64,000 nt of DNA, taken from Planctomycetia bacterium (GTDB lineage: Bacteria > Planctomycetota > Planctomycetia > Pirellulales > UBA1268). The position numbers and the translations under genes are program-made. The notes below the pieces were generated by a model. It had not been told where the DNA came from, made no database searches, and saw only the letters and a list, made by a program, of their open reading frames with translations. This document shows, piece by piece, positions 436 through 62,750 of this stretch. Where the stretch lies: NCBI GenBank assembly GCA_021414115.1, contig JAIOPD010000070.1, positions 40,879 through 104,878 on the forward strand, in the 5' to 3' direction. How positions within the stretch are numbered: the first letter of the stretch is position 1; each line of letters starts with the position of its first letter.

Positions 436-2319
<1,884 letters not shown>

Positions 2320-5732: not shown

Positions 5733-5758
5733 GGCTGGCACCACCTTGGAGACACGGG

Positions 5759-13167: not shown

Positions 13168-13273
13168 GGAAGCCCGGAGCGCAAGCGACGTGTAAACGGG
13201 TAGAGGCCGCGAACGTGCCGCGGAGCGAGTCGGGGTGGAGGATGTATTCCCCGCGCTCGCGCTTGGGGCTTTC
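13168..13273 (+). repeat. Family-1 rod-hairpin intergenic repeat, copy B
   Basis: GGAAGCCCGGAGCGCAAGCGACGTGTAAAC...GTATTCCCCGCGCTCGCGCTTGGGGCTTTC. Lies in the convergent gap. Its last base is the first base of the plsC stop codon complement (CTA at 13273-13275). Confidence 0.85.
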
Positions 13274-13947
13274 TAGGAGAGAGTCGCACGCGCCCGGGCG
13301 TCGAGGTCGCGGATCCGCTGCGTGCAGACCTCGAAGATTTCCCGCTCGCTCATCGTGGCCACCTCCTCCGTGGTGAGGATCTTGCCGAACTCGACCCGGA
13401 TCCGACCCGGCCGCGGAAAGAGCCGTGTTCGCGGCCAGCATTCGAAGGCCCCCACGATCGCCACCGGCACGACGGGCACCCCAGCTCGCTTGGCCATCAG
13501 GCTGAAGCCGCTCTTGAAGTCTCCAAGCCGGCCGTCGAAGGTCCGCGCGCCCTCGGGAAAGATGATGACCGCCGCACCCCGTTTGAGTCGCTCGATCACG
13601 ATCTTCATCGCGGCGATCACCGATGCGTTGCGATCGATCGGCACTGCGTCGAGCGCCGTGATCACCGCGCCGAAGGGCTTGAACGTGTAGAGCGAACTCC
13701 GCGCCAGGCTCGAGAGGCGGCGGTCGGTCGCGAGGCCGAGCAGCAGCGGGTCGAGATGGCTCTGGTGACTGGAGAGCACGATCAGGCCGCCGTGCGCGGG
13801 CAGCGGCTCGGCGAACCGCGAGCGAAAGCCGAACAGCGACACGCCGAGCGTGCGACAGAGCACCCAGAGCACGGCATAGAGGCACTTGCCGAAGAGACTG
13901 TGCCCGCCGCCGGTCGGCGCCGCGTCGTCGGTGGGCCGCGGCTTCAT
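13273..13947 (-). CDS. plsC: 1-acyl-sn-glycerol-3-phosphate acyltransferase
   Basis: 224 aa. HX4D motif (SSHQSHLD) and FPEGARTFDG motif. Confidence 0.85.
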   Translation of the reverse strand: MKPRPTDDAAPTGGGHSLFGKCLYAVLWVLCRTLGVSLFGFRSRFAEPLPAHGGLIVLSSHQSHLDPLLLGLATDRRLSSLARSSLYTFKPFGAVITALDAVPIDRNASVIAAMKIVIERLKRGAAVIIFPEGARTFDGRLGDFKSGFSLMAKRAGVPVVPVAIVGAFECWPRTRLFPRPGRIRVEFGKILTTEEVATMSEREIFEVCTQRIRDLDARARATLS

Positions 13948-20861: not shown

Positions 20862-23026
20862 AGCGTCCGAGTATGAAATTCGACAAGGACGCGATCCTCG
20901 CGTTTCTGCTGAACCACTGCGAGAAGCTCGTGGTCGGCGTCATCGCACTTGCGGCGCTCGGCCTCGCCTGGGGTGGCATCGACGCCCTCCGGCTCAAGTC
21001 GGTGAAGCCCGACCAGACGCCGGCGGCGCTGACGAGCCTGAATGCCAACGCCAACAACCATATCGACGCCGCCACGAAGCCTCCGGCCGCGAACCGCAAG
21101 GCGGGCCGACTCGCTCTGGCAATCGATCCCTGGCGGCCTCAGCAGGTGAAGATCGTCGCCGCGCCGGAGATGTCGCTGTTTGATCGGCCGCTCTTCCAGG
21201 AGTTGGCGAAGCGGACCAAGCCGAACGTGTTTCCAATCGAGGATCTCCGCGCGGTCGCGGGCATTGCGGTGCTGCCGGCCGTCGAGGTCCCGAACGCCGC
21301 CGACGTGCCTCCGGCCGCTCCGCCGCAGCCCGAGGAAGCCCGGCCGGGGCGACCCCGGGGCCGTGGCCCCCGACGGGGCACGCAGCCTGAGCCTGAGTTC
21401 GCGCCGCCAGGGCCCGGGTTCGCGCCGGTAATGGGTGACACCACTCGCGGCCGGATCGCTCCCTATGTGATCGTCACCGGGCTCGTGCCCGTGGCCAAGC
21501 AGCAGGAGGAGTTTGAACGGTGCTTTGCCAGCACCGGTTTTCGCGATCGCGACCTGGATGCGCCGAAGTGGGGCCAATACCTGGTCGAGCGTTCGGTGGT
21601 GGGCACGGGCGGAGCCGAGCGCTGGGAACGGCTCAAACTGAAAAACGTCGAGGCGCTCGACGTCGCGGGCGGTCCACAGAACCAGCCGGCCGAACCCATG
21701 CAGCCGGAGATCCTGCCGCCGGCATTCCTCGTCGGGGCGACCGAAGCGGAGATCGGCTATGCGGCCGGCGTGCCACAGCGGATCGACGACTCGTGGGGTT
21801 TCGCAGCGATCCACCCCTGGTTTCTTCCACAACTCAAGCGGCTCCTCGAACAGAACCAGGTGGGCGTGGATGTCGACCGGGCCGTAGCCCCGGCCGATGC
21901 GAAGCAGCTGCGGGATTCGCCCGACGAGTTCGTCGGGAAGGTGGTGCTCCTCGAGGGTATGAAGTTTGTCGGGGATCCCGACCCGCAGCGGCAGGCCGGC
22001 GTGGTCGCACATGCCGTGGCAACGGCCGACGGCGGCGTGAAGTTCGCGACCGACGAGATCGGCACCGTGGACGGCACGGTGTTCGCCATTGCCGGTCCCT
22101 GGGCCAGGACGCTCGCTCTCGACGGCGGCGTGACCCCCGACATTCCCTGCACCCTTCGCGTCCGCCTGGAGATGATCGGCCCGACTCCCGTGGCGAGAAT
22201 CCTCGGCATCAAATACGCGGCCGCGGATGGCGGCGCGGGCGAGGAGTTGTTCGATCCCAACCCGCTGCCGCTGGCCGGCGGCCAAGCAGTTGGTCTCGCG
22301 ACCGTCCGCCAGCCGGGAGCGGTGGGGCCCGAGGAGGGGGCAGAGTTTCGCCTGTTTCGCTTCGTGGACACCGACGTGAAGCCCGGCCTGAGGTATAGCT
22401 ACCGGGTGAAGTTTGCCTTGCGGAACCCGAACTTCGGCCTCGACCAGCAGCATTTGGCCGATCCCACACTGGCCAAGGGCGAGTTCCTCGTGTCGAAGGA
22501 AAGCAATCAGTCGCCGCCCGTTCGTGTGCCTGAGCCGACGTCGATGCTCGCCAAGCCGCTCACGAAGGACGAGATCAAACGCATGAAGATGAAGCCGGGC
22601 TGGTACGAGATCCTCGTGCTCGGAGAGAACGCCGCCACCGGCAACTACGCGATCCGTAGCCTGCTTACGGAGGTCGGCGGCCTCGCCAATGTCGATCCCG
22701 CGCTCAACAAACCGGGCGACCAACGGACCCGTGGCGAAGCCATCTCGACCGGTCGAATCCTCGTCGATGCCCGGGGCCGACAGGAGGACCGCGGCAACGC
22801 CGGGTCGGCCGCCGGTCCGGGCGACATGCTGGAGATGCTCTTCTTCGACCCCACAACTGGCGCGTTCGAGTTTGTCTCGGCCGCCGACTCGCAGTCACGG
22901 TACGACCGCTACGCCCTGACCCTGCCGCTCGCCGAAGATCCCAAGAAGGGTGGTAATCAGCCTGCGGGACTGCCGGCCAACCAGAATCCCTTCGAGTTCG
23001 CACCTCCTGGCCGCGGTGGGCCATGA
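20858..23026 (+). CDS. hypothetical membrane-anchored protein, 722 aa
   Basis: Starts at the ATG at 20858 (MKRPSMKFDKDAILAFLLNHCEKLVVGVIALAALGLAWGG), residue 124 of the track ORF. ATGA overlap with the upstream stop. I recognise no family signature. Confidence 0.7.
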   Translation: MKRPSMKFDKDAILAFLLNHCEKLVVGVIALAALGLAWGGIDALRLKSVKPDQTPAALTSLNANANNHIDAATKPPAANRKAGRLALAIDPWRPQQVKIVAAPEMSLFDRPLFQELAKRTKPNVFPIEDLRAVAGIAVLPAVEVPNAADVPPAAPPQPEEARPGRPRGRGPRRGTQPEPEFAPPGPGFAPVMGDTTRGRIAPYVIVTGLVPVAKQQEEFERCFASTGFRDRDLDAPKWGQYLVERSVVGTGGAERWERLKLKNVEALDVAGGPQNQPAEPMQPEILPPAFLVGATEAEIGYAAGVPQRIDDSWGFAAIHPWFLPQLKRLLEQNQVGVDVDRAVAPADAKQLRDSPDEFVGKVVLLEGMKFVGDPDPQRQAGVVAHAVATADGGVKFATDEIGTVDGTVFAIAGPWARTLALDGGVTPDIPCTLRVRLEMIGPTPVARILGIKYAAADGGAGEELFDPNPLPLAGGQAVGLATVRQPGAVGPEEGAEFRLFRFVDTDVKPGLRYSYRVKFALRNPNFGLDQQHLADPTLAKGEFLVSKESNQSPPVRVPEPTSMLAKPLTKDEIKRMKMKPGWYEILVLGENAATGNYAIRSLLTEVGGLANVDPALNKPGDQRTRGEAISTGRILVDARGRQEDRGNAGSAAGPGDMLEMLFFDPTTGAFEFVSAADSQSRYDRYALTLPLAEDPKKGGNQPAGLPANQNPFEFAPPGRGGP

Positions 23027-24444
23027 ACACACGGCCTCTTTTTTTCGATCGCGATCACGTTCCTGGTCTTTCTCGCATGCCGCGGTTGCCGACACTCATG
23101 AATCTTGTTCGAAGATGCGCTCCGATCATCGCCGTCGCTACCGTCATGGCATGGGCGTCCTCCACCGCAGTCGCGCAGGATGAAGAGCCGGCCTTTGCTT
23201 CGTGGTCGAAAGTCGAAGCCACGCAGGAGATGCGCGACTACCAAGCCAAACTCAAAAAGGGGGAGTTCGACGAGTCGGCGCGGAAGTTTCTCGAGACCTC
23301 AATCCTGCCCCAGCTCGCAGCGGAAAAAAACATGCCGACGATCGAGCGGGTGCGCCGCCGGCTGCGGGATGTCGCCCTCAACGAACGAGACGCCGACGCC
23401 GCTGCTCTCGACAAGGCGAACGACACGGCCACGCGATCGCTGACGACACTGGCCCGAAACCCGAAGGCCGAGCCGGTCGTCCGCATCAACGCGATGCTTC
23501 TGGTGGGCGAACTGCGGAGCAAGGATGGCCGACCTTGGCCGGGAGCGGTGCCGGCATTGGCCGCGGCCATGGCCGACACGAAACTCGCGCTCGCGGTGCG
23601 GGTGGCGGCGGCGGCGGGATTGGGCCGCCACGCGGAAGCCGGCCGGGCAGGCGGCGTTGACCCGGCGTTTCAACGGGAGACCCTGCCGAAGCTCGTGGCC
23701 ATCGTGGCCGTGACACCGGCCCCAGAGGACGGCGCGGGAGGGGAATGGCTCGTGTCGCGGGCACTCGAGATCCTTCCGGTCGCAGCCCCCAAGGCATCGC
23801 CGCAGGCGGCAGCGGCCTTGGCAAAGATCGTCGCCGATGCAGCACGGCCGATCGACGTCCGCGTGCGGGCGGCGGCCGCGCTCGGAACGACTGTCGCGGC
23901 TGATTCCAACGTGGACGCGGGCGGGATCGTGGCAGCGATTCGCGGGCTCGCGCTCACGGCGCTCAGAAGCGACCTCACTGCGTCGGAGGATCTCGAGTGG
24001 AGCCGTCGCCTAGGCGGCCAACCGCCGCCCGGACAGCCGGACTTCGCCAAACCGACCGGGTTTCCTGGCGGACTTCAGCCGACGCCGGAGCCGAGCGGGC
24101 CGCCAATGCAACCGCTCGTGGTGCGGCGCGATGCCTGGCGACTGATCCGGCTGGCGGACGCGATCCTCGCCGAGGAAGGCAGCGGCGGCCTGGCGACGCT
24201 GCTCGCCGGCCCCGGCAAGATCTCCGCCGAGCAGCTGGCCACAACGCTTCGGGCCGCGGGCAAGAGTCTTGATGCGGCCCCCGATGCTGCGGCGGTGAAA
24301 AACGCGCTCGAAAAGATCGAGCAGACCGCGGCAGCCGTGCAGGCACCGGCAGCGGCGGCCCCCGCGGCGGCCACACGGCCCACAGCCCCTGCGGCCACCG
24401 AGAAGCCGGCCGAAAGCGATCCGTTCGCCACGCCCGGCAACTGA
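23023..24444 (+). CDS. hypothetical secreted alpha-helical (HEAT/ARM-like) repeat protein
   Basis: 473 aa. ATGA overlap with the upstream gene. Signal-peptide-like IIAVATVMAWASSTAVAQD. Ala/Leu-rich helical repeats. An internal start at MPRLPTLMNL is possible. Confidence 0.65.
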   Translation: MNTRPLFFDRDHVPGLSRMPRLPTLMNLVRRCAPIIAVATVMAWASSTAVAQDEEPAFASWSKVEATQEMRDYQAKLKKGEFDESARKFLETSILPQLAAEKNMPTIERVRRRLRDVALNERDADAAALDKANDTATRSLTTLARNPKAEPVVRINAMLLVGELRSKDGRPWPGAVPALAAAMADTKLALAVRVAAAAGLGRHAEAGRAGGVDPAFQRETLPKLVAIVAVTPAPEDGAGGEWLVSRALEILPVAAPKASPQAAAALAKIVADAARPIDVRVRAAAALGTTVAADSNVDAGGIVAAIRGLALTALRSDLTASEDLEWSRRLGGQPPPGQPDFAKPTGFPGGLQPTPEPSGPPMQPLVVRRDAWRLIRLADAILAEEGSGGLATLLAGPGKISAEQLATTLRAAGKSLDAAPDAAAVKNALEKIEQTAAAVQAPAAAAPAAATRPTAPAATEKPAESDPFATPGN

Positions 24445-24486: not shown

Positions 24487-24591
24487 GGAAGCCCGGAGCG
24501 CGAGCGACGGGTAGATGCGTGGCCTCCGCGAGGGTAGCGCGGAGCCAGGCGGGTGGACGGCAATGTCCCCGGGCTCCCGCCCGGGGCTTCC
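24487..24591 (+). repeat. Family-1 rod-hairpin intergenic repeat, copy C (most diverged)
   Basis: GGAAGCCCGGAGCGCGAGCGACGGGTAGAT...GTCCCCGGGCTCCCGCCCGGGGCTTCC. Lies in the convergent gap between the pil operon end (24444) and the ilvB stop (24630). Confidence 0.8.
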
Positions 24592-24629: not shown

Positions 24630-26408
24630 CTATTTCTTGATCAGATCCTTGACCGTCATGCCGGACGGGATCATCGGGAGCACGTGCGACTGGTAGGGCA
24701 CCTGCACATCGAGGATCGCGGGGCCGGGGGCGTCGATCAGACGACGCAGCGCCGGCTCGAGATCCTTCTTCTCGGCGATCGTCTCGGCCTGCCAGCCGAA
24801 CCCCTTCGCGATCGCCACGAAATCGGGGTAGCGAATCTCGGGGGAGATGCCGTCGCCCTGGCCGCAGGCCTCGGGATGATCGACCGGCCCAAGGTAGGTG
24901 TGGGCCCGATTGCCCTTGAAGAACCGGTCTTCCCACTGGACCACCATGCCGAGGTGCTGGTTGTTGAGCAGCAGCACTTTCACCGGAATGTTCTCGGTCT
25001 TGCAGGTGGCGAACTCCTGAATGTTCATCAGGATGCTGCCGTCGCCGTCGATGTCGACCACGAGCGCGTCGGGGCAGGCCACCTTCGCCCCCATCGCCGC
25101 GGGCAGACCGAAGCCCATCGTGCCGAGCCCACTGGACGAGAGCCATGTCCGCGGCCGGCGAAACTTGTAAAACTGCGCGGCCCACATCTGGTGCTGGCCC
25201 ACGCCGACGGCGATCACGGTGTCTTGCTTCGCCGTGAGCCGCGAGAGCTCCGCGATCGCCTCCTGCGCGAGGATGCCCTGGTAGTTCGTGTCGAAAGCGA
25301 AGGGATCTTCCCTCTTCCACTCAGCGATCCGGGCGTGCCACGGGCCCAGATCGGCCGCCGGTGGCTCCACGATCGCGTTGAGTTGGCCGAGGGCGGCCTT
25401 CACGTCGGCCACGATCGGCACGTGCACGAGCTTGTTCTTGTTGATCTCGGAAGGATCAATGTCGATGTGCACGATGAAGCCGTGTTCGGCGAAGGCCTCC
25501 ACCTTGCCCGTGACGCGGTCGTCGAATCGCACTCCCACCGCGATCAGGAGATCGGCCTCGTCGACGGCATAGTTGGCGTACACGCTGCCGTGCATGCCGA
25601 GCATGTCGAGCGAGAGCGGGTCGTCGCCGGGAAACACGCCCAGACCCATGAGCGTCATCGTGACCGGAATGCCCGTCTTCTTGACGAGCGTGCGGATCTC
25701 TTCGGAGGCGTCGGAGGCGATGACGCCACCGCCGGCATAGATCACCGGCCGCTTGGCCCGCTTGATGGCGGCCGCGACCTGCGCGATCTGCTCGGGATGG
25801 GCAGGCTTGCGGGGCTCGGGATGGTAGCCGGGCAGGTTCATCGCGCAGTCATAGTCGGGCACGATCTGCGCGAGTTGGATGTTTTTAGGGAGATCGACGA
25901 GCACCGGGCCCGGCCGGCCCGTGGTGGCGATGTAGAAGGCCTCCTTCATCACCCGGGCGATGTCGTTGGCATCGGTGACCAGGTAGTGGTGCTTGGTGAT
26001 TCCACGGCAGACCTCCACCATCGGCGTTTCCTGAAACGCGTCGGTGCCGATCACGCTCGTGCCGACCTGACCGGAGAGCACGACCATCGGGATGCTGTCG
26101 AGCTTGGCGTCGGCGATCGCCGTAACGAGGTTGAGCGCGCCGGGACCGCTCGTCCCCATGCAGACTCCCGGTCGCCCGGTGGTGCGGGAGTAGCCCTGAG
26201 CGGCGAACGCCCCGCCTTGTTCGTGCCGCGGCAGGATCGTGCGAATCTGGTCCTTGTAGCGGGTGAGCGCCTGGTGGAGCGGCATGCTCGCCCCACCCGG
26301 ATACGCGAAGATCACGTCAACGCCGTGGCGGACGAGCGACTCGACGACCACGTCGGCCCCGGACACGAAGGCTTCGGATGCTTTCGACGGGCGGGACGCG
26401 GTGGCCAT
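24630..26408 (-). CDS. ilvB: acetolactate synthase, large (catalytic) subunit
   Basis: The true start is the ATG at 26408 ([48 protein letters not shown]), residue 294 of the track ORF. ThDP motif [16 protein letters not shown]...[12 protein letters not shown]. Confidence 0.95.
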
Positions 26409-26648
26409 GGGATGCTCCTGAATCGTGGTCTGAGACGGGGAACTGGCTGAGAAGGGACCAAACAGAATGCCCCCCAAACATACACCATGAAAACGCCCTG
26501 AAAAACTCGCCCCCCCTTGGCACCAGCGGGCGGCGGGCGCCGAAGTGACAGGGGTAAAGACGCCGGCCGCTTGCCCGCGAAAATGTACATCAGTACACTT
26601 CCGAGGTTGCGCTTCGTGGACGTCGGCGTGGCAGATAGACTTCGTGAC

Positions 26649-27311
26649 ATGGCCACGGCTCCCGATCACCGCGACGGCGGGGCACATCCCCGGATTCCAA
26701 ACGAGATTCCGAACGCAGGACCGAGCGTGGTCAGGTTCGGGTTCGACGTACTCGACCGGATCGAGCAGGCGGTGGCCATGGTGAAGGAACGCCTCAAGCG
26801 GGCAGTGGCGGCGCTCGACGCGCGGGAGATCCCCTACGCCGTCGTGGGCGGGCATGCCGTCGCGGCCTGGGTGTCGCGGATCGATCCGGCAGCCGTGCGG
26901 ACGACGGTCGATGTCGATCTCCTCGTGTCCCGCGGCGATTTCGAGGCCGTGAAGTCGGCCCTCGAGGAAGCTGGGTTCATTCACTCCTTCACGTTTGGCA
27001 TCGACATCTTCGTCGATGGGCCCAAAGGCAAGGCCCGCGAGGCGGTGCACATCCTGTTTGCCGGCGAGCGGGTGAAGCCACAGGATGCGGTGCCGTCCCC
27101 CGACCTCTCTGCCGCGGAAGCGTTCGAGGGCTACCGGATCATGGGCCTCGACCGCCTGATCGCGATGAAGCTCACGGCGTTTCGCGACAAGGACCGCACT
27201 CACCTGCGCGACATGATCGACGTGGGGCTGATCGACGCCGCCACCGTGGGCCGCCTGCCCGAGCCTCTTCGCGGGCGGCTCGAGCAACTGCTGGCAAACC
27301 CGGACGGCTGA
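26649..27311 (+). CDS. nucleotidyltransferase-fold protein (orphan, AbiEii/MNT-like)
   Basis: The segment [38 protein letters not shown] resembles the G[GS]...D.D core of small nucleotidyltransferases. The start is uncertain (ATG at 26649). No partner gene is adjacent. Confidence 0.45.
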
Positions 27312-33066: not shown

Positions 33067-33157
33067 TCATACGGCTCCCACTTGATCCTCGCGCGCCCGG
33101 GCCCAGTGTGCCGCTGATTCCGCGTTGCTGGCGGTTAACGCCTGCGGGCGTGGGTTC

Positions 33158-33252
33158 GGGGCTACCCATCCTCCGTCGCCGGACGTTCGTTGCGGGCATC
33201 CTGCCCTCCACTCACTCGATGCCGGCTCCCGGAGCACGGGTAGCCCCTCGCG
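33158..33252 (-). repeat. Family-2 hairpin repeat, copy 1 (inverted relative to copy 2)
   Basis: The outer arms GGGGCTACCC (33158-33167) and GGGTAGCCCC (33238-33247) are exact reverse complements. The reverse complement of the interior matches 51176-51246. Confidence 0.8.
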
Positions 33253-33389
33253 GTCTCCTCGTTCGCCCAGAGGAACGACGCCGCATACGTGGTTCCCTGC
33301 GAACCACGATCTTGGCGGCATGGCCATCTTTCCGGCTTGCGCGATCCCTCTCGGAGCGCCATGATGCGGCCTCCACCGGAGGAGGTCGC

Positions 33390-33890
33390 ATGGACATCAG
33401 CGAACGGAAGCGAGGGGATCGCCAGAAGCTTGCCCGACTGATCGCCAGGGAATCGAATGCCATGCAGCGAGACCGGCTGCGGAGCGGCCTACTCGTGCTG
33501 CAGGGCCGGCAGACACTCGAAGTGTCTGCCTCTGTGGGCCGCAGTCGGGCCTTCGTGCAGCGTTGGGCATACGCCTATCGCGACGGCGGTATCGAGGCGG
33601 TGCAAGGACGCACGCCACCGGGCCGTCGGCCACGGCTGTCGCCCGAGCAGGAGACTCGCTTCGTGCAGCGGGTGAAGGCCGGCGCGACACCGCGAGACGG
33701 TGTCGCATCGCTGCGAGGGCGGCAGATTGAAGGCATTCTGGATCGCGAGTTCGGCAAGACGTTTTCCCTCAATGGGGTCTACCAGCTGCTCAAGCGGCAT
33801 GGATTCGTTTGCCTCGAGCCCCGGCCGAGGCATCCACGGCAGAACCCGGCTGCAGCGAAGGCCTTCAAGCGGCGCGCCCCCCTTTTGTGA
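33390..33890 (+). CDS. IS630 transposase, N-terminal HTH part (orfA)
   Basis: MDISERKRGDRQKLARLIARESNAMQRDRLRSGLLVLQGRQTLEVSASVGRSRAFVQRWAYAYRDGGIEAVQGR...LSPEQETRFVQRV. GGAGGAGG Shine-Dalgarno 5 nt upstream of the ATG. Confidence 0.85.
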   Translation: MDISERKRGDRQKLARLIARESNAMQRDRLRSGLLVLQGRQTLEVSASVGRSRAFVQRWAYAYRDGGIEAVQGRTPPGRRPRLSPEQETRFVQRVKAGATPRDGVASLRGRQIEGILDREFGKTFSLNGVYQLLKRHGFVCLEPRPRHPRQNPAAAKAFKRRAPLL

Positions 33891-34435
33891 ATCGCGTGCG
33901 GGCCTCACGGCCTCGCACGAAGGTTCGCCTGTGGTTCCAAGACGAGGCGAGATTCGGCCAACAGGGCACGCTGACGGCTGTCTGGGCGATCAAGGGATCG
34001 CGGCCGACCGTCGTGCGTCAGAACGGCCGCAAGTCGATCTGGATATTCGCGGCCGTCGAGCCTGCCACGGGCTGGTCACTGGCCATGCCATTCCGTGATG
34101 TGAACACCGCGACCATGCAGGCGTTCCTTGACGCGGCAGCGAGCAAGCTTCACCGCCGCGAGCATGCCGTCATGATCCTCGACGGCGCAGGCTGGCATAG
34201 TGCACACAAGTTGCGATGGCCCCGGCGCATCACGCCGCTGTTCCTGCCGCCGTACTCACCAGAACTCAATCCAGTCGAACGACTCTGGCACTGGCTTCGC
34301 GAGCACCACTGGAGCAATCGCACTTACGCCGACGAGCAGGCCCTCGTCGAGGAAGCCGTCAGGAGCCACCGGACGCTTCGCAGGACAGACATCCGGTCGA
34401 TCCGCAGAACCCGGTGGATCACGCCTGGGGATTAA
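33809..34435 (+). CDS. IS630 transposase, DDE catalytic part (orfB, -1 frame relative to orfA)
   Basis: LWFQDEARFGQQGTLTAVWAIKGSRP...VMILDGAGWHSAHKL...LFLPPYSPELNPVERLWHWLREH, the DD(35)E signature of IS630/Tc1-mariner. The frame is only reachable from orfA by a -1 shift near 33875-33888. Confidence 0.85.
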   Translation: MPRAPAEASTAEPGCSEGLQAARPPFVNRVRASRPRTKVRLWFQDEARFGQQGTLTAVWAIKGSRPTVVRQNGRKSIWIFAAVEPATGWSLAMPFRDVNTATMQAFLDAAASKLHRREHAVMILDGAGWHSAHKLRWPRRITPLFLPPYSPELNPVERLWHWLREHHWSNRTYADEQALVEEAVRSHRTLRRTDIRSIRRTRWITPGD

Positions 34436-34687
34436 GTGGGATCCGTATCAGAGGCCATCGCCGTAGCTATCCTTCGTGGTCACGCCCTTCATGAGCAGGC
34501 CATCGGCGGTGGTCCGCGGGGCGTCGCGCGCAAGCCGCGGGCCGGCCTATCCGCTACCCCCGATGATGCCCCCTCGAGGCCAAGCGAAACCGACTGCATT
34601 CGCCCGATTATTTGCGGACGCAAACATTCGGGCGTATGGTGTTGAGGGGGCTGTTCTGCGGGCGTCTATCGTGAGGAGATTTCTGTC

Positions 34688-48778: not shown

Positions 48779-48884
48779 GGAAGCCCAGAGCGCAAGCGAC
48801 GGGTAGACGGGCAGCAACCTCGACGGTAGCGCGGAGCGGATCGACGTGGCGGGCGTATTTCCCGCGCTTGCGCTTGGGGCTTCC
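48779..48884 (+). repeat. Family-1 rod-hairpin intergenic repeat, copy D
   Basis: GGAAGCCCAGAGCGCAAGCGACGGGTAGAC...GTATTTCCCGCGCTTGCGCTTGGGGCTTCC. Lies in the convergent gap between the TPR gene (stop 48728) and the isomerase gene (stop 48919). Confidence 0.85.
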
Positions 48885-51110: not shown

Positions 51111-51250
51111 GCGAGGGCCTGCCCATACCCCGTCGCCGGCGTATGACGCCAAGCGCAGGCAGGATGCCGAAGCGCAGGCGGCATCCGAGTGAGTGGAGCC
51201 CAGGATGGGCGCAACGAACGTCCGGCGACGGGGCATGGGCAGCCCCTCGC
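51111..51250 (+). repeat. Family-2 hairpin repeat, copy 2 (long form)
   Basis: 27-nt arms GAGGGCCTGCCCATACCCCGTCGCCGG (51113-51139) and CCGGCGACGGGGCATGGGCAGCCCCTC (51222-51248) pair with 2 mismatches. The interior shares about 65 nt with the reverse complement of 33158-33225. Confidence 0.8.
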
Positions 51251-52653: not shown

Positions 52654-54630
52654 CTACTGGATGAAGATGAACTCGCGGGTGTTGAGCAGCGCCCAGATCA
52701 GGTTGCCGCAGCCCGTGGCGGGATCGGCGGCGGAGGCGATCTCGTCGCGGGCCTCGCGGCGATCGTCGGCCGCGGGCTCGTGGGAGAGCACCGACAGAAA
52801 GATCACGTCGACGGTCTCTTCGGGATCGTGGCTCATCACGGTCTCGTAGATCACGGAGCCCTTCTCGAGCATGGCATGCGTGATCGGCCCGTTGAACATC
52901 GCGAGGATCTGCGGGATCGTGGGCACGGTGCGGCCCCCCTCGATCGTCTCGCGGTCGCTCTGGCCGAACTGCCGGAGGAAGTGGCCGAGCGGCAGCGGCG
53001 TGGGCATCTCGCTGGCCTTCATGAGCCACTGGCCACGGTAGCCGCAGTTCTGCTGGAGCATGCGCTGGTAGCGGCCAGGGCCGTAGCGGTCGAAGAAGGC
53101 GTCGAACTGCCGCTCCACGTCGTCGAGCGACGCCTGCCGCAGATCGACGCTCGCGACCTCGGCGATCTCGGCGGCGGCGGGCCGCTGCACGCTCCAGGGA
53201 TTGCGGGCGACGAGCGTCACGATCGAATCCCAGAGCTGCTCGGCCGTCATCCGCCGCAGGGCCGGGCCCGTGAAGCGAAAGGGCTCGGCCGCGGTGGGAT
53301 CGTGGATCACCGCCCGCCGCTGGTAGGCAGAGGTCGAGACCACGGCGCGGACAAACTCACGGAGATCGAAGTCGAGTCGCAGGACGAGGTCGGTGAGGTG
53401 CTCGAGCAACTCGGGATCGCTCGGCGGATTCTCCTTGCGGAAGTCGTCGTCCGGCTCGACGAGCCCCACGCCCATCACCTTCTTCCACATCCGGTTGGCG
53501 ATCGTGCGGGCGAACTGCCGGTTCGTCCGCGCGACCATCCAGCTTGCAAACTGCTCCCGGCCGTCGGCGTTTTTCACACTCGCCGGCACCGACCCCCAGA
53601 GGAGTTTCTTCGTGACGGGCTCCAGCGGCTTCGCGTCGTCGTATTGATAGTCGTGCGGCAGCCGGAGCGGACGGTCCTGAAAGCTGACGCCCGTCGCATT
53701 GGCCTGGATGAACTGAATCAACTGCGCCGCCTTGCGACCCCTGGATTCCTTGGCCTCCTTGACGAGCGCCCGGACGGCCGGCGGCGGGACGGGCTTGGCT
53801 TCCTTGCCGGGCTTGCCAGGCCGCATGGCGGCGCCCAGCCGCATTTTCGTGCCCGCCGTGAAGGCAGCCAGTTCGTAGAACTCGTGCTGCGTCCAGCGGT
53901 CGAAGGGATGGTCATGGCACTGGGCGCAGCCGATCTGCGTGCCGAGCAGCACGCGCACGGTGTTGTCCACATAGGGCAGCGGCATGCCGTCATCGCGGAG
54001 CTGGAAGCCGACGGCGGGGTTTTCCCAGAGCCGGCCGTCGGCGGTGAGCATCTCGCGGACCCAGTCGTCATAGCGCTTGTTCGTGCGGATCGAGTCCTTC
54101 ACATAGGCCAGATACGGCTCGAAGATCAGGTTTCGCTGCGGCCGCTCGGTGAGCCGGAGGATGTCGGCCCAGAAGTTGTAGAAGTGACTGACATAGTCGG
54201 GGCTCGCCAGCAGCCGCTCGATGAGAGCATCGCGTTTGTCGGACGAGTCGTTCTGGAGAAAGGCGACGGTCTCGTCATAGGTCGGAATCCGTCCGGCCAA
54301 CTCGAGATGGATGCGGCGGACGAACTGGGCGTCGTCGAGCGAAGGCGACGGCACGACGCCGTACTCCTGCCAGCGGGTCGCGAGAATCGCGTCGATCGCG
54401 GCGGCCTGTGCACGGACCTTGTCGCGACGGCGGGCATCGACCGGTGCGACGTCCATCGCAGGTCGGTTCGGGGCCGCCGTCACCGCCTTCGGCAGGCCGC
54501 CCTTGCGGTCCGCTGAGGTGTCGGGCTTCGCACGGTTGGCCGCCAGGGAGACGACCGCCCCCGCCACGATCAGGCAGGCGGCGAGCGCCGACGCGACACG
54601 CTGCGAAATCGGCACCACCTTCAACCGCAT
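52654..54630 (-). CDS. DUF1549/DUF1553 domain protein (PSD1-type)
   Basis: Starts at the ATG at 54630 (MRLKVVPISQRVASALAACLIVAGAVV). Contains FVRRIHLELAGRIPTYDE and GCAQCHDHPFDRWTQHEFYELAAF. It is the usual partner of DUF1501 in Planctomycetota. Confidence 0.88.
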   Translation of the reverse strand: MRLKVVPISQRVASALAACLIVAGAVVSLAANRAKPDTSADRKGGLPKAVTAAPNRPAMDVAPVDARRRDKVRAQAAAIDAILATRWQEYGVVPSPSLDDAQFVRRIHLELAGRIPTYDETVAFLQNDSSDKRDALIERLLASPDYVSHFYNFWADILRLTERPQRNLIFEPYLAYVKDSIRTNKRYDDWVREMLTADGRLWENPAVGFQLRDDGMPLPYVDNTVRVLLGTQIGCAQCHDHPFDRWTQHEFYELAAFTAGTKMRLGAAMRPGKPGKEAKPVPPPAVRALVKEAKESRGRKAAQLIQFIQANATGVSFQDRPLRLPHDYQYDDAKPLEPVTKKLLWGSVPASVKNADGREQFASWMVARTNRQFARTIANRMWKKVMGVGLVEPDDDFRKENPPSDPELLEHLTDLVLRLDFDLREFVRAVVSTSAYQRRAVIHDPTAAEPFRFTGPALRRMTAEQLWDSIVTLVARNPWSVQRPAAAEIAEVASVDLRQASLDDVERQFDAFFDRYGPGRYQRMLQQNCGYRGQWLMKASEMPTPLPLGHFLRQFGQSDRETIEGGRTVPTIPQILAMFNGPITHAMLEKGSVIYETVMSHDPEETVDVIFLSVLSHEPAADDRREARDEIASAADPATGCGNLIWALLNTREFIFIQ

Positions 54631-54675
54631 GAGGTCACCTCGATCGCATCCGGGATACGTGACATCGGGCGCCGG

Positions 54676-54782
54676 GGAAGCCCGGAGCGCGAGCGACGGG
54701 TAAACGGGTCGCCGTCCGGAGCGGTGCCGCGGAGCGGGTTGGGGTGGCGGACGTATACCCCGCGCTCGCGCTTGGGGCTTCC
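54676..54782 (+). repeat. Family-1 rod-hairpin intergenic repeat, copy E
   Basis: GGAAGCCCGGAGCGCGAGCGACGGGTAAAC...GTATACCCCGCGCTCGCGCTTGGGGCTTCC. Lies between two same-strand (minus) genes. Confidence 0.85.
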
Positions 54783-54937
54783 TGAACAATGCATGCCGCC
54801 CTCGGCGAACCAAACCGGTTTTGTCTTTCTCCCGGCCGCATCCGCCACAAGGGTCGCGAAAAACAGGAACCTATGAACATCACGGATGCACCTTGACCTT
54901 CGCCTGCGGCTCGAAGCCTGCCTGTTTCGACACCGAT

Positions 54938-57900
54938 TTAACGGTGCTGAAACGGAAAGGTTTCGTCGGACATCACCCGAGCCCCCGCCCGGGCCACGGT
55001 GGCCAGATCGTCGCCCCCAGGCCGTCCGCCACGGAGCCGGGCGAGGGCCAGCCGACACCACGCATCCGCCGGGGCCAAGACGCGGTCGTCGCCGGCGGCA
55101 TCGGCGTGGTGGGCCACGGCCAGCACGCTCACGGCGTCTCGGGCGTCTGCGGAGAGTTGGCCGATTTCGAGCTGCCGCTCGGCCAGGCTCCGGCCGTGTC
55201 GGCGAATCGCCCGGTCGATGCTTCGGGCGGTCACGAGAAGGCTCTGGCGTGCCGCCCGGGCATGATCGCGGAGGCGGCGGTCGAGGATCGCCGCATCCTG
55301 TCCCTGACGGCCACCGGACGTGGCCACCCGCCAGGCGAGCCACGCCCCCGCCCGCCGCCAGGCGGCGGCCTCGCGGCCCAGCGCGGCCAGCGGGTGGCGT
55401 TTCGCGATTCCCTTGAAGAGCGCGAGGCCGAGCAGGTCGCTCTCGCCTTCGTAGACCGTGACGGCGAAATGGTCGTGCAGCGAGTCGCCCAGTGGATGAC
55501 CCACGAGAAACGCCCGGCCGCCATGCACTCCCAGCGCGTCGATGGCGGCATCGCGGACGCAGTGGCTGGCGACCACCTTCGCCGTGATCGCCTCCCACTC
55601 GCCGCTCTGACCGGCATCGATCGCTGACGCAGCCCAGGCGGCGAGTGCGTCACAGGCCACGATCGACGCCGCGATCCTGCCGAGCCGACCCTGGATCAAC
55701 TGCCGCGATCCGATCGGCTGCTTCCACGTGATGCGACGGGCCGCGTGGTCGCGGGCCTGCGCGAGCAGGAGCCGGAGCGTGCCGGCGGCCTGCGCGGCGA
55801 GCGTGACGCGTCCCCGATTCAAGCCGTGCCAGACGATTCGCATCGCATCGCCCGACGACCCGGGATCGAGCACGTCCTCCGGGGTGATCTCGAAGCCCGT
55901 AAACTCAAGGGCCGCGTTGTGGGCATGCTTGAGCGGATGCAGCGCATACCCGCGCAAGCGAAACGTGGCCGTGTCGGCGTCGGGCAGCCGCGCGAGCACC
56001 ACCACCGGCCGGCCGTCGAGCACCGCGAGCACCTTCACGAGCCGGCCGTGGGTCGCGCCGGTGATGAACATCTTGGTGCCCGTGAGCAGCAATCGGCCGG
56101 AGCGGCGCTCGACCGTCGCCTGCACCCGCCCGAGGTCGCAGCCGGCGTCTGGTTCCGTGGCACCAAAGATTGAGAGCTGCCGGCCCGTGGCCAGGTCCGG
56201 CAGCAGACGCGCCTGCTGCGCGGCGGTGCCGAAGCCGGTAAGGGCCGAGACCGCGCCGATCGACGAATGCACCGAGAGCATGCCGGCCGCCGTCGGCACG
56301 TCGGCCGCCACCCGCGTGATCGCGCGGGCGAGGTCGAGCATCGATCCGCCGGAGCCGCCGAAGGCCTCGGGCACGGCGAGCCCCCACAGGCCGGCCTCGC
56401 CAAGCGCCGCTTCGGCCCGCAGGGAAAAGACGCCCGTCGGCGCAGGGGGAGCGTCGTCGAGCGGGGCGACGGCACCGGCTGCGACAAGCGGCTGATAGAG
56501 CAGGCGGTCGGTGCGAAGCCGGGCGATCTCGCGAGCGGCACGATCGAGCACGGCCTCGATGCGGTCGGGCAGCGGCGCCGCCCCCAAAGAAGCCGCGGCC
56601 GCGAAGCCGCCGTCAGCGCCGCACCAGACCGCGTCGGCGAGCCAGGAACTCTCGCGAGACTTGGCTGGAGCGTCGGTCATCGGCAGTTCGACTCCGGGGG
56701 CACGGTCTCCGACAGTCTGAGCGATCACGTCGGCAAAATGCCTGGCGATCGCGTCGCGGCGAAGCTTGAGCGATTCCGTCGCCTCACCGTGCGCCGCATC
56801 AAAGGCACGACCCACGAGCACATAGGACGCGACCCGCCAGGACCGGGGCAGGTCCCGCTGCCGCCGCGCCAGCCGCCGCGCGAGCCACTCGTGCACCCGC
56901 GGATGCGCCAGAGCATGCCGCCGACTGACGACCCGCAATCCCATCCGGCGGATTGCCGCCCGCAGCACGTCGGGCTCCGGCACCACGAGGGCGACGGGCC
57001 TCGAGCCGCCGACGCTCACGACGCACACCTGCGCGACCGCGTCGTCTTCCGCGAGCGACGCCTCCACGGCCGCGGGCGGAATCTTGACGCCGGTGGCGAG
57101 CACGAGCGTGTCGCGGAGGCGACCAGTGATCTGCACGTGCCCCGCTTCGTCGATCGCGGCCACGTCGCCGGTCGCGAGCCATTCGTCGGCCGAGTCATCC
57201 GGCTCCGGCGACCGAGCACCGGGGGACGTCCTCGTGGGATCGAGGATGCCCAGCGCCCTGCTGGGTGTCTTGACGAGCAGCTGCCCCAAGGACTCCCTCC
57301 GCGTATCGATCCGCACCTCGACGCCCGCGATCGGCGGACCGATCATGCCCGGCCGCGCGATCCGCGGATTGCCGAGAGCCACCACCGGGCCGGCTTCGGC
57401 CAGCCCGTAGCCCTCGACGAGCGGCACTCCCCGGGCGTTGAAAAAATTAGCCGTCCGGCGGCGGAGCGGCGCGCTTCCCGACACGCACACGCGCACGCTC
57501 CCGCCGAGACCATCCCGCAGGTCCGCAATCCGCCCGGAGATCACGCCGCGTTCCAGCCGCTCGAAGAATGCGGGCACTCCAAGAATGACCGTCGGTGGCA
57601 ACGCCCGACAGGCCTCGAGCACGCGGGTGCGCTCGCGGACGACGTTCAGGCAGCCGCCACGGACTATCGCTGTGTAAAGATCACCCGTCCGGGCAAGCGC
57701 ATGGCTCATCGGCAGCCACGAGAGTCGCACGTCCCGAGGATCGTCGAGAAACATCTCGGCCGCTGCGATCGCGTTGGCGGCCAGCGCCGCCTGCGAGTGC
57801 ATCACGCCATGGGGCACGCCCGTCGTGCCGGATGAGAGCAGGATCGTGCCGCATGCTCCGGGATCGCACGCCGCGGCGTGCCGGTCGATCGCGGCCCGGA

Positions 57901-58432
57901 GCGACGCCGACTCTGCCGCCAGTGGCCGCCAGCCGCCGGCGGCAAGAGAAAATCCGGCACGCGACCCGCCCGGGGAAAGATCGATCGCGATCCGTGGGGC
58001 CATGTCGGCGGGTGTCACGCCCCCCACGCCGCGGGCTCCCGAGAAGATCACGCCGCGCGGCTCGAGCCACCCGCACTGCGCGAGATGCTCAGCGCGGCTG
58101 GCGTCGGCATGGAGGGCCACATGCACCACGCCCGCCACGGCACAGGCCAGATCGACGACGATCCAGTCGGGCGCATGACTCCCGAGATGAACGACGCGAT
58201 CACCCCGCGCCAGGCCCGCGGCGGCGAAGCCATCGGCCAGGCACACGGCAGCGGCGATGACGTCGCCCCAGGTCCAGACGGCGGCGTCTTCTGCCAACCC
58301 GTCGACGATCGCCCGCCGGTCGGGGGCTTCGGCCAGGAGCGTCCCGAGCAGGTCAACGAGCGACGTCGCCCGCCGGTCATCCCTTGGTGGCTGCAAACGC
58401 GGCTCGATCTTCGGCAGCGCGAGTGGGTGCAT
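54938..58432 (-). CDS. fusion protein: AMP-dependent acyl-CoA synthetase (FadD-like) + acyl-CoA dehydrogenase (FadE-like)
   Basis: Starts at the ATG at 58432 (MHPLALPKIEPRL). The N-half carries LLSSGTTGVPHG, EGYGLAEAGP and LATGDVAAIDEAGHVQITGRLRD. The C-half carries GLWGLAVPEAFGGSG, FGATEPDAGCD, KMFITGA and VYEGESDLL. It is one uninterrupted 1164-aa frame. Confidence 0.85.
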   Translation of the reverse strand: MHPLALPKIEPRLQPPRDDRRATSLVDLLGTLLAEAPDRRAIVDGLAEDAAVWTWGDVIAAAVCLADGFAAAGLARGDRVVHLGSHAPDWIVVDLACAVAGVVHVALHADASRAEHLAQCGWLEPRGVIFSGARGVGGVTPADMAPRIAIDLSPGGSRAGFSLAAGGWRPLAAESASLRAAIDRHAAACDPGACGTILLSSGTTGVPHGVMHSQAALAANAIAAAEMFLDDPRDVRLSWLPMSHALARTGDLYTAIVRGGCLNVVRERTRVLEACRALPPTVILGVPAFFERLERGVISGRIADLRDGLGGSVRVCVSGSAPLRRRTANFFNARGVPLVEGYGLAEAGPVVALGNPRIARPGMIGPPIAGVEVRIDTRRESLGQLLVKTPSRALGILDPTRTSPGARSPEPDDSADEWLATGDVAAIDEAGHVQITGRLRDTLVLATGVKIPPAAVEASLAEDDAVAQVCVVSVGGSRPVALVVPEPDVLRAAIRRMGLRVVSRRHALAHPRVHEWLARRLARRQRDLPRSWRVASYVLVGRAFDAAHGEATESLKLRRDAIARHFADVIAQTVGDRAPGVELPMTDAPAKSRESSWLADAVWCGADGGFAAAASLGAAPLPDRIEAVLDRAAREIARLRTDRLLYQPLVAAGAVAPLDDAPPAPTGVFSLRAEAALGEAGLWGLAVPEAFGGSGGSMLDLARAITRVAADVPTAAGMLSVHSSIGAVSALTGFGTAAQQARLLPDLATGRQLSIFGATEPDAGCDLGRVQATVERRSGRLLLTGTKMFITGATHGRLVKVLAVLDGRPVVVLARLPDADTATFRLRGYALHPLKHAHNAALEFTGFEITPEDVLDPGSSGDAMRIVWHGLNRGRVTLAAQAAGTLRLLLAQARDHAARRITWKQPIGSRQLIQGRLGRIAASIVACDALAAWAASAIDAGQSGEWEAITAKVVASHCVRDAAIDALGVHGGRAFLVGHPLGDSLHDHFAVTVYEGESDLLGLALFKGIAKRHPLAALGREAAAWRRAGAWLAWRVATSGGRQGQDAAILDRRLRDHARAARQSLLVTARSIDRAIRRHGRSLAERQLEIGQLSADARDAVSVLAVAHHADAAGDDRVLAPADAWCRLALARLRGGRPGGDDLATVARAGARVMSDETFPFQHR

Positions 58433-58442
58433 CACGGCGTGT

Positions 58443-59657
58443 TTACTCCACCCGCTCGAAGAGCACGGCGATGCCCTGACCGAGGCCGATGCACATCGTC
58501 GCGAGGCCCAGCCGGCCGCCGCCGTCGCGCATGGTGTGCAGCAGCGTGGTCGCGATCCGTGCGCCGCTGGCCCCGAGCGGATGACCGATCGCGAGCGAGC
58601 CGCCGCGGACATTGACCCGCTCGGAGTCGAGTCCGAGTGAGTCGATGCAGTGGATCGCCTGCGCGGCGAAGGCCTCGTTGAGCTCGACCACGTCGATGTC
58701 GGGAAGCGTGATGCCCTGCGTCGCGACCCGCGCGAGCAGCTTCTGCGTGGCGGCGATCGGGCCGGTGCCCATCGCCGCCGGTGGCACGCCCACGACGGCG
58801 GTGGCCACCACGCGGGCCAGCGGCAGAAGCCCCTGCCGCGCGGCCTCGGCCTTCGACATCACGAGCAGCGCCGCGGCGCCATCGCTCACAGGCGCGCTGG
58901 TCGCCGCGGTGACCGTGCCGAGCTTCGGGAGGAACGCGGGCTCGAGCACCGCCATCGCCTCCAGACTCGTGTCGCCACGGATCGACTGGTCGCGAACGAC
59001 CTCGAGGAGGCCGCCGCTCTCGTCGTGGCCGATCACGCGGACGATCTCGTCGTCGAAGAGCCCCTTGTCGTCGGCCCGGGCCGCCTTGCGATGGCTCGCG
59101 AGGGCGTATTCCTCCTGCCGTCTCCGCGAGAGGCCGTGGGTCGCCGCGAGATGCTCGGCGGTGAGCCCCATCGAGAGCATGCCGCGGCTCGACCGCGCGA
59201 AGGCCCGGGGATGGATGTCGATGGCCGACTCCATCGGCAGGTGGTGCATGTGCTCGACACCACCCACCACCTGCACGTTCTCGGCGCCGGCCGCGATCGC
59301 GTGGCAGGCCTGGGCGAGCGCCTGGAGCGACGATCCGCAGAGCCGGTTGACCGTCGTGCCCGCGGTAGCGAGCGGCAGGCCCGCCAGCAGCGCCACCGTG
59401 CGGGCCACGTTGCCGCCGAGTTCGCCCCGCTGCTGCGTGACGCCGAGCACGACGTCCTCGATTGAGTGCGGATCGACGCCGCTTCGCTCGACGACCGCCT
59501 GGACGACGGCAGCGGCCAGTTCATCACCGCGGACGTGGCGAAACACACCCCGCTCGGGATGCGCGCGACCGATCGCGGTGCGGCAGCAGGCGACGACCAC
59601 GGGCGTGGTCGCCGGATCACGGTCGCTACGTGGCGGGTTGCCGGCCATGGGTCTCAC
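58443..59657 (-). CDS. acetyl-CoA C-acyltransferase (thiolase)
   Basis: Contains NRLCGSSLQAL (active Cys) and the C-terminal GLATMCIGLGQGIAVLFERV. The GTG at 59657 overlaps the upstream stop; an alternative ATG lies at 59648. Confidence 0.92.
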   Translation of the reverse strand: MRPMAGNPPRSDRDPATTPVVVACCRTAIGRAHPERGVFRHVRGDELAAAVVQAVVERSGVDPHSIEDVVLGVTQQRGELGGNVARTVALLAGLPLATAGTTVNRLCGSSLQALAQACHAIAAGAENVQVVGGVEHMHHLPMESAIDIHPRAFARSSRGMLSMGLTAEHLAATHGLSRRRQEEYALASHRKAARADDKGLFDDEIVRVIGHDESGGLLEVVRDQSIRGDTSLEAMAVLEPAFLPKLGTVTAATSAPVSDGAAALLVMSKAEAARQGLLPLARVVATAVVGVPPAAMGTGPIAATQKLLARVATQGITLPDIDVVELNEAFAAQAIHCIDSLGLDSERVNVRGGSLAIGHPLGASGARIATTLLHTMRDGGGRLGLATMCIGLGQGIAVLFERVE

Positions 59658-62666: not shown

Positions 62667-62750
62667 GCGGGAATGGCGGAATTGGCAGACGCGCCAGGTT
62701 GAGGGCCTGGTGGTAGTAATACCGTGCAGGTTCAAGTCCTGTTTCCCGCA
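62667..62750 (+). tRNA. tRNA-Leu (anticodon GAG), no encoded CCA
   Basis: Hand fold. Acceptor stem GCGGGAA/TTCCCGC. Anticodon stem CCAGG/CCTGG with loop TTGAGGG. Long variable arm GGTA-GTAA-TACC. T arm GCAGG-TTCAAGT-CCTGT. Discriminator A. Confidence 0.9.

Follow-up and report, generated by a model that had tools for sequence, protein, structure and literature searches.

A palindromic repeat family in a planctomycete contig

The window analyzed here, a 64,000-nt stretch (68.5% G+C) of contig JAIOPD010000070.1 from a Pirellulales-like planctomycete, carries five copies (A-E) of an intergenic repeat that we denote Family-1. Each copy is an imperfect palindrome of 105-107 nt, and all five lie on the + strand. 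Copy D, the feature under study (48779-48884), is a full element resembling a REPIN, an inverted doublet of repetitive extragenic palindromic (REP) units; it matched a covariance model of the family with 99.4 bits, and its imperfect palindrome reaches ~3-6 nt beyond each end (CA...TG). Four of the five copies (A-D) sit between convergent genes and none between divergent genes. Copy A (2387-2492) is bracketed by genes 436-2319(+) and 2532-6134(-), copy B (13168-13273) by 10075-13134(+) and 13273-13947(-), and copy C (24487-24591) by 23023-24444(+) and 24630-27287(-). Copy E (54676-54782) has a - strand gene on each side: it is downstream of one (54938-58612) and upstream of the other, which ends at 52654.

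The covariance model, run over the whole window, found no full Family-1 copy beyond these five. A solo REP-like unit (GAAAG followed by CCCGGAGC GGAA GCGACGGG) was present on the - strand at 2330-2354, 11 nt past the stop codon at 2319 and 32 nt from copy A, which brings the tally to five doublets and one singlet in 64 kb, all of them intergenic. This placement, at the ends of genes, suits both REPs and an RNA function. The window copies are 63%-82% identical to one another, with most of the divergence in the center. Their shared orientation is not significant (5/5), copies on other contigs are of mixed orientation, and GC skew was uninformative as a guide to the replication strand in the window. 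We also noted that the longest open reading frame (ORF) of gene 52654-54813(-) extends into copy E, its first residues (…SLALRAS…) translating a repeat arm; automatic annotation would probably place the start of this gene too far upstream.

Anatomy of the arms

We compared 41 distinct full elements from the window and other genomes, collected by a model search of 403 kb of scanned loci and from contigs added later. The loci came from a scan for the 5' arm in one genome per species (at least 53 loci), with positions 9, 10, and 16 left free; since this pattern fixed 20 of 23 bases, the 5' arms are biased toward invariance, whereas the 3' arms are unconstrained. A metagenome scan on the ends alone (GGAAGCCC N65-95 GGGGCTTCC) returned almost only chance matches, along with three true copies (L112, L120, and L146).

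The element consists of two differing versions of a stem-loop, inverted around a partly self-complementary spacer of ~55 nt. Read from the outside in (the 5' arm on the + strand, the 3' arm on the - strand), each 25-nt arm is made up of a GGAAG foot, 8 nt, a GNNA loop, and a further 8 nt. The 5' arm of copy D (48779-48803, +) is the foot followed by the REP-like stem-loop CCCA-GA-GC GCAA GC-GA-CGGG, and its 3' arm (48860-48884, -) is the foot followed by a second REP-like type, CCCC-AA-GC GCAA GC-GC-GGGA. The spacer between them (48804-48859, +) forms an inner stem with its outer part (GTAGACGGG / GCGTATTT) and is variable at its center. The corresponding consensus sequences are CCCG-GA-GC GCRA GC-GA-CGGG for the 5' arm and CCCC-AA-GC GCNA GC-GC-GGGG for the 3' arm (- strand). 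In both, the 8-position stem carries two purine positions outside Watson-Crick pairing (5' arm, G.A/A.G; 3' arm, A-A opposite G-C). The loop is GNNA in both arms of all 41 copies, and its third base is free: 5' arms have GCGA (23 copies), GCAA (13), GCCA (4), or GTTA (1), and 3' arms, read on the - strand, have GCAA (12), GCCA (12), GCGA (11), or others (6).

When the whole element is folded as one long hairpin, its outer pairs 1-25 are near invariant in sequence across genera and phyla, and this includes fixed mismatches, at 9/-9 in 40 of 41 copies, at 22/-22 in all 41, and at 21/-21 in 32. Among the 22 copies of the long type, pair 16 is the only one of the 25 outer pairs to have changed on both sides. 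None of these copies forms pair 9 or pair 22, and one forms pair 21. The local fold of each arm accounts for these mismatches. Positions 9 and 22 of the same arm pair with each other, as G:C in 39/41 5' arms and as C:G in 39/41 3' arms, and the fixed mismatches G9/G-9 and C22/C-22 arise because this local pair is flipped, with compensation, between the two arm types. The Family-1 arm types differ at four stem positions, all of which belong to two local pairs (C(8,2)/C(16,4) = 0.015). Across 29 arm types from several families, pair 9:22 was CG in 13, GC in eight, and UG in one, with a covariation score of 0.079 compared to 0.028 in shuffles, a value reached by one of 500 shuffles; we regard this count as supportive, short of proof.

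The 3' arm of copy C offers a further example. Read on the - strand, it is GGAAG CCCCGGGC GGGA GCCCGGGG, a perfect local stem of eight pairs (-11.8 kcal/mol, z = -3.85). Its three changes turn the purine mismatches of the local stem into G:C pairs, and thereby produce the mismatches a11/c, c15/c, and g20/g in the long hairpin; these three were absent from the first-pass annotation of this DNA. The 3' arm found on contig L191, discussed below, likewise forms a perfect local stem. Taken together, the sequence comparisons indicate that the local stem of each arm is the conserved structure. The foot is less constant: related families have NAAAG, NCAAG, or CAGAG, with only the final AG in common with GGAAG, and of the window copies, only A, C, and D carry the motif GTAG 3' of their 5' arm. 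More generally, mismatches in the long hairpin of a near-palindromic repeat can stem from compensation within its arms; both folds need testing.

Compensatory changes and hairpin stability

The first-pass annotation had proposed that compensatory changes between window copies, at facing positions 16/-16 and 10/-10, reveal selection on the long hairpin. Its base calls are correct: 16/-16 is A/C in copies A and B, A:T in D, and G:C in C and E, and 10/-10 is G:C in copy C and G.T in the other four. The selection deduced from them did not hold up in the larger set. In copy D, position 16 corresponds to 48794, the third loop base of the 5' arm, and position -16 to 48869. This is the most variable site of both arms, and its two sides vary independently: 22 of 41 copies are paired, compared to 21.1 expected (permutation p = 0.41), and the other 19 have plain mismatches. 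In the first 39 copies tabulated, the 5' side was G in 23, A in 11, C in four, and T in one, and the 3' side was T in 13, C in 13, G in 11, and A in two. Position 10 has changed on the 3' side only (T in 31, C in eight) opposite a near-fixed G. The five window copies carry no statistical weight here: if the site changes by transitions alone, three of the four combinations possible at 16/-16 are scored as paired. The changes are chance variation of a free loop base and show no selection on the long hairpin.

The same sites do not agree on a strand. Read on the - strand, the A/C at 16 becomes G.U and the G.T at 10 becomes A/C; because the strand switch swaps the two mismatch types, the two sites favor opposite strands. 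Over all pairs in the + orientation, G.U cells exceed A/C cells (52 vs. 9, or 15 vs. 5 when positions 10 and 16 are omitted). We considered this asymmetry as a strand test and set it aside, since a single fixed site and a single subfamily dominate it.

Stability was a different matter: the long hairpin of every copy was more stable than its dinucleotide shuffles on either strand, with RNA parameters (z-scores of -2.5 to -5.9 over both strands) and with DNA parameters (-2.7 to -5.1). For copy D the z-scores were -5.3 and -4.6, respectively. The general idea of maintained pairing also survives in part. Pairing appears maintained, over and above common descent, in the inner stem of the spacer, where pairs 26, 28, 29, and 30 have changed on both sides (pair 29 is GC in nine copies, AU in six, GU in three, and CG in one), and not in the outer 25 pairs, which do not covary. 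The inner stem had 17 cells changed on both sides, compared to 8.4 ± 2.3 in shuffles, an excess that related sequences may show without any structural constraint. As judged from the alignments, real covariation in the long hairpin is limited to this inner stem and, in the acidobacterial relative described below, to position 9. Between families, long-hairpin pairs 11 and 20 differ on both sides, with compensation, when the arms of contig L186 are compared to Family-1. Published REPINs combine invariant REP ends with a spacer that often carries compensatory changes; they occur in tandem clusters and can adopt two alternative folds (PMC3116915). A covarying spacer between conserved ends thus matches the published behavior of REPINs (PMC3116915).

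Family-1 arms flank Y1 transposase genes in related genomes

A contig of a Planctomycetaceae metagenome-assembled genome (MAG), denoted L016, provided a link to a gene. It was reached through a weak phmmer match (E = 0.33) to an IS200 TnpA probe. L016 starts within a 5' arm and inner stem, continues with a 164-aa ORF, and has a full Family-1 element 40 nt past the stop codon. The two closest homologues among the contigs fetched showed a similar layout. On L184, with a protein 79% identical to that of L016, a full element lies 66 nt upstream of the gene. On L185 (72% identical), a full element precedes the gene, and the stop codon is followed directly by a 3' half-element and then by a new 5' arm. 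In total, all five visible flanks of these three genes carry Family-1 sequence. The databases held 337 homologues of the L016 ORF, mostly on contigs of ~1 kb, as expected given that repeats break assemblies. JGI, and only JGI, labels the homologues "REP element-mobilizing transposase RayT."

More distant homologues (50%-54% identity, on L186, L187, L188, and L191) have clusters of related, diverged arms on their flanks. On L186, both arms read GGAAG CCCGAGGC GC[A/G]A GCCGAGGG; mismatches 9, 21, and 22 become pairs, and the tandem purine mismatch of the local stem is shifted by one register. On L187, the arm types CGT-A-ACCGC GTGA GCGGT-ACG and CCC-A-ATCGC GTAA GCGAT-GGG occur in five copies each, and all six of their stem differences lie within three local pairs, each compensated (p = 0.007). 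The two L187 arm types are otherwise mostly complementary, differing exactly at these three locally compensated pairs. On L191, CCCGGAGC GGAA GCGACGGG co-occurs with CCCCGGGC GGAA GCCCGGGG. That the arms of these homologues have diverged along with their proteins indicates that repeat and protein diverge together while the local stem is retained.

Several other observations concern these loci. The L186 arms (at 5668, 5813, and 6697 on the + strand and 5751, 5896, 6634, 6780, and 6817 on the - strand) are identical except for the third loop base, which is A in 3/3 left arms and G in 5/5 right arms, giving the same A/C "mismatch" as in copies A and B. Beside the Y1 gene of L188 lie tandem arrays of a 29-nt unit (GGGCTTGGATGGACGGTGGTCCGTCGCGC; 2990-3060 and 3660-3920), and beside that of L191 lie ~40-nt REP units and GCGCGCACGGCC-type repeats (2650-2880 and 3540-3700), which marks Y1 loci as hot spots for repeats of several types. 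A conserved A+T-rich box (ATGTAAATATGTACAC / TATATACAAATGTATACAT), possibly a promoter or operator, immediately precedes the Y1 genes in DNA that is otherwise 70% G+C (L016:30-58, L184:775-800, L185:365-395, L187:2955-2980, and L188:3130-3150).

Proteins of the L016 clade are 161-187 aa long with a conserved N-terminus and the motifs xHVH, WWT, and YVxx[C/A]Q; HVH and Y-x4-Q were invariant in 50 sequences. Sequence profiles fell short of a family assignment: the L016 ORF scored 19.7 bits against Pfam PF01797 (Y1_Tnp; cut-off 23), and a profile search against PDB sequences gave as its best match only 2EC2, at E = 0.73. An AlphaFold model built from the 50-sequence alignment (pLDDT 90.7, pTM 0.83) was more informative. 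Its top 30 structural matches in the PDB were all Y1 HUH single-stranded DNA (ssDNA) transposases, and later matches were unrelated. The matches include ISDra2, IS608, IS200, a Sulfolobus homologue, and the E. coli TnpA_REP in complex with a REP hairpin (4ER8), with target-normalized template-modeling scores of 0.52-0.67. The predicted structure thus places the protein in the HUH/Y1 ssDNA transposase superfamily.

Distribution across genomes

Full Family-1 elements were present in several Planctomycetaceae and Pirellulales MAGs, and a 60-nt form was present in one Acidobacteria MAG. Arms also occur in tandem clusters (L021, L051, L029, and L052), and some copies are truncated or degenerate (L042, L026, and L005:288 among them). 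Single matches in Alphaproteobacteria (Hyphomicrobium and Pacificimonas), in which the rest of the element was missing, were treated as chance. We found no repeated insertion sequence beside the solo arms of the Planctomycetaceae MAG.

Closer relatives of the window tell of a patchy distribution. The gene adjoining copy D encodes a sugar-phosphate isomerase with many homologues of 80%-93% identity in Pirellulales MAGs. Two relatives (88%-93% protein identity) keep the pair of isomerase and TPR genes, with unrelated DNA of similar length in between, and the covariance model found no Family-1 copies in 144 kb of two close relatives, compared to five in the 64 kb of the window. A patchy distribution together with high sequence conservation is the pattern shown by mobile DNA. 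At the convergent site orthologous to that of copy D, we observed other, unrelated hairpins (L178:10748-10960, CCGGTCCGCACCA...TGGTGCGGACCGG; L174:10748-10934), and it seems that a hairpin is retained here irrespective of where it came from.

The relative in Acidobacteriota is a sister family. A complete Bryobacterales chromosome carries the identical 20-nt stem-loop, with the foot CAGAG, as both arms of hairpins measuring ~140-150 nt from arm start to arm start. Here position 9 (the fourth stem base) takes all four bases, and the two arms agree in seven of eight hairpins (p ~0.002). By comparison of these sequences, the agreement reflects real covariation of the long hairpin, or else copying from arm to arm.

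In the Bryobacterales MAG OZ250179, matches that had passed for the Family-1 element itself turned out to be junctions of an IS110-family insertion sequence with the related hairpin. This 1751-bp element (L003:4056-5785, with 15 further copies on L010, L015, L022-L028, and L037-L053) has an ORF at L003:3942-5366 with DEDD_Tnp_IS110 and Transposase_20 domains, and its copies are 97.6%-99.9% identical, mostly at least 99.7%. The insertion point is constant in at least 16 copies, between foot and stem (CAGAG/CCC; gcggatTCAGAG / IS ...CATGGAAG / CCCNGAGCGCAAGCGACGGGCC), and the target at the foot-stem junction reads CAGAG/CCCNGAGCGC. The element uses the arms as its insertion target, and they are not its own ends; no such arrangement was seen in the window. 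IS110-family elements that insert into REPs exist (those of the IS621 and ISPpu9/10 type). Downstream (3') of the transposase gene lie ~410 nt of non-coding DNA that could hold a guide (bridge) RNA for the REP-like target.

Family-1 as a probable REP/REPIN-type family

Family-1 is probably a REP/REPIN-type family of non-coding, extragenic palindromic repeats, with ties to an HUH/Y1 transposase in related genomes. Starting from what was observed directly (the anatomy, the statistics, the gene-repeat link, the protein fold, and the patchy distribution), we propose the binding and cutting chemistry by analogy and the mobility from the distribution. The arms would be the recognition sites of a small, class-3-like HUH/Y1 ssDNA transposase (TnpA_Y1), which, by analogy with IS200/IS605 TnpA and the E. 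coli TnpA_REP, would bind one strand of ssDNA at the folded arm and draw its specificity from the foot and from the irregular positions of the stem. Cutting and rejoining of DNA by the enzyme would spread the doublets through intergenic DNA. The near-invariance of the arms would then be kept by sequence-specific recognition, and not by pairing in the long hairpin, leaving the spacer alone free to drift, loosely required to stay foldable.

The likeness to REP/REPIN-RAYT systems extends to many features: short units that are imperfect palindromes in which the 5' foot and the stem mismatches are conserved; inverted doublets that fold as a hairpin around a spacer, the ends conserved and the variable spacer compensated; heterodimers of two unit types, singlets, and tandem clusters; an extragenic location, mostly past gene ends; and a Y1 HUH gene flanked by units. 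REP dimers are often heterodimers (PMC3733652). Even the A-A opposite G-C irregularity of the Family-1 3' arm has its equivalent in the REPs of E. coli, whose TnpA_REP requires the A-A:G-C irregularity in the stem (PMC8266576). In contrast to those systems, Family-1 has a GNNA tetraloop and a tandem G.A in the stem, and its host is a Pirellulales-like planctomycete.

A second comparison is with TnpA_Y1 of class 3, which Quentin et al. (2018) describe as rare and as occurring chiefly in Planctomycetes and Acidobacteria, with atypical flanking hairpins that reach ~600 copies in Solibacter usitatus, of the order Bryobacterales (PMC6006769). The parts of that paper drawn on here give class 3 the motifs NHVH, W[TA], and YV[VI]xEQ, a length of ~178 aa, a long conserved N-terminus, and the hairpin foot CnGA (PMC6006769). 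Compared by description, the L016-clade proteins are alike in hosts, size, N-terminus, HVH, WW-T, and Y-x4-Q; in both cases the genes are flanked by several hairpins that can be high-copy, and the Bryobacterales foot CAGA(G) fits CnGA. They differ in the tyrosine motif, which is YV-x-x-[C/A]-Q here and not YV[VI]xEQ, and neither the doublet architecture nor the logic of the local stem is among the class 3 features described in those parts (PMC6006769).

The transposases of the IS200/IS605 family are the best structural matches of the modeled protein, and IS608 and ISDra2 offer a parallel in their subterminal irregular hairpins of 20-25 nt with a 5' guide tetranucleotide, which a Y1 HUH dimer recognizes on one ssDNA strand. 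Unlike in those elements, the Family-1 hairpins are dispersed in many copies without a gene, as inverted doublets, and the gene-bearing unit shows no TnpB. The MITE-like ERIC, Correia, and RUP elements are also imperfect palindromes of ~100-130 nt in transcribed intergenic DNA that can fold as RNA, but they have terminal repeats and target duplications, or no known enzyme, whereas Family-1 has no target duplication and is linked to a Y1 gene.

Several results weigh against assigning Family-1 to this kind. No Y1 gene lies within the 64-kb window, the link being seen in other, related genomes, and we saw neither excision products nor target duplications nor precise empty sites, which leaves the distribution as the case for mobility. 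The protein scores well below the NCBIfam cut-offs, with 16-25 bits against the RAYT model (NF047646, equivalog; cut-off 80), by which the L016 clade is not RAYT, and 20-31 bits against the IS200 model (cut-off 55). The foot fits neither precedent: GGAAG is not the canonical GTAG of REPs, and (CA)GGAAG does not fit the CnGA foot given for class 3 (PMC6006769). Most 5' arms were found with the pattern fixing 20 of 23 bases, which inflates their apparent invariance, and the alignment of 29 arm types was curated by hand from related sequences. Finally, ordinary arms are weakly stable on their own in nearest-neighbor DNA folding (-5 to -5.5 kcal/mol, z of -0.5 to -1.8), and the element as a whole has the long hairpin as its minimum-energy fold.

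A broader proposal, which we put forward tentatively and think rather unlikely to prove right, is that the stem-loop CCCGGAGC-GNNA-GCGACGGG with its tandem G.A, common to Planctomycetota and Acidobacteriota almost unchanged, belongs to a third, barely studied class of Y1 HUH enzymes. If it did, this would be a REP system that moves between phyla as a package of protein and site, with a foot rule (NAAG/CAGAG) differing from that of GTAG REPs and with a hairpin that serves as the landing pad for an IS110-family element, and it would offer a tractable model of how REP systems arise from IS200-like elements.

For annotation, the REP/REPIN reading implies that the hairpins should be recorded as selfish repeats of the REP/REPIN type and not as candidate structured RNAs, the "compensatory" sites being no evidence of RNA selection. 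It adds a well-resolved Pirellulales-like Planctomycetota case to the class-3-like Y1 systems, which have been little studied; this is of use to specialists in mobile DNA and is not surprising.

Alternative explanations

In a reading allied to that of the first-pass annotation, the element acts as RNA, a long hairpin in 3' untranslated regions that ends or stabilizes the flanking transcripts and is kept by RNA pairing. We hold such a role to be improbable. In its favor, convergent 3' ends surround four of the five copies and the fifth follows a gene end, the folds are strong on both strands, and effects of REPs and ERICs on mRNA stability are known (PMC3733652); the inner stem does covary, but the outer 25 pairs do not, being conserved as sequence across genera and phyla. 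Compensation within the arms explains the fixed mismatches and so weakens the long hairpin, and copy C gives up pairs of the long hairpin for a local stem. The excess of G.U over A/C cells in the + orientation speaks for an RNA role, yet comes mostly from one fixed site and one subfamily, and the A/C at 16 and the G.T at 10 favor opposite strands. Unrelated hairpins occupy the same intergenic site in relatives, but the element itself is not conserved there. A terminator scan found no T-run after the element on either strand, and no match of the element to Rfam 15 was found at the gathering threshold or at E ≤ 1. A secondary, exapted effect of Family-1 on RNA is possible.

We also weighed whether the repeats are decaying relics of a recent burst, under no present selection, in which compensation and arm conservation would reflect ancestry alone. 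The 63%-82% identity of the window copies with its central divergence, the free variation of position 16, and the truncated or degenerate copies mentioned above would all be expected of relics. On the other hand, the arms are near identical across Planctomycetota genomes and the 20-nt stem-loop is identical in Bryobacterales, while the spacers have strongly diverged; differences between arms are confined to local pairs; covariation in the spacer and in the acidobacterial hairpins exceeds shuffled controls; and the arms have diverged jointly with the associated protein. We give this explanation little credence. A classical miniature inverted-repeat transposable element, whose arms would be terminal inverted repeats bound by a DDE transposase such as that of the IS630-like (DDE_3) gene in the window (33108-34435), is suggested by the length of ~106 nt, the 25-nt inverted ends, and the multicopy, patchy occurrence. 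We find it extremely unlikely: there was no target-site duplication at any offset or length tested in 38 copies, the IS630-like element has unrelated terminal repeats of its own (33069-33095 and 34422-34448), solo arms and tandem arrays are common, Y1 genes and not DDE genes are flanked by arms, and the Bryobacterales IS110 element treats the arms as a target and not as its own ends.

Other features of the window

The IS630-like element spans 33069-34448, and the inverted repeats at its termini are 27 nt long. Its helix-turn-helix part (33108-33890) is read in one frame and its DDE_3 part (33809-34435) in another, which makes it probable that the gene either is frameshifted or relies on programmed frameshifting. 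A second repeat, Family-2, occurs on opposite strands at 33158-33247 and 51186-51246, with 61 nt in common at 89% identity. The copy at 33158-33247 forms a hairpin of its own inside the IS630-like element, and an internal mini-stem is flipped on both sides between the two copies (GGGCATCCTGCCC vs. GCCCATCCTGGGC). A similar motif (GGCACGGGCAGCCCCTCGC) is found upstream of solo arms in L008, L014, and L026. The sole Rfam match in the window is a tRNA gene at 62667-62750.

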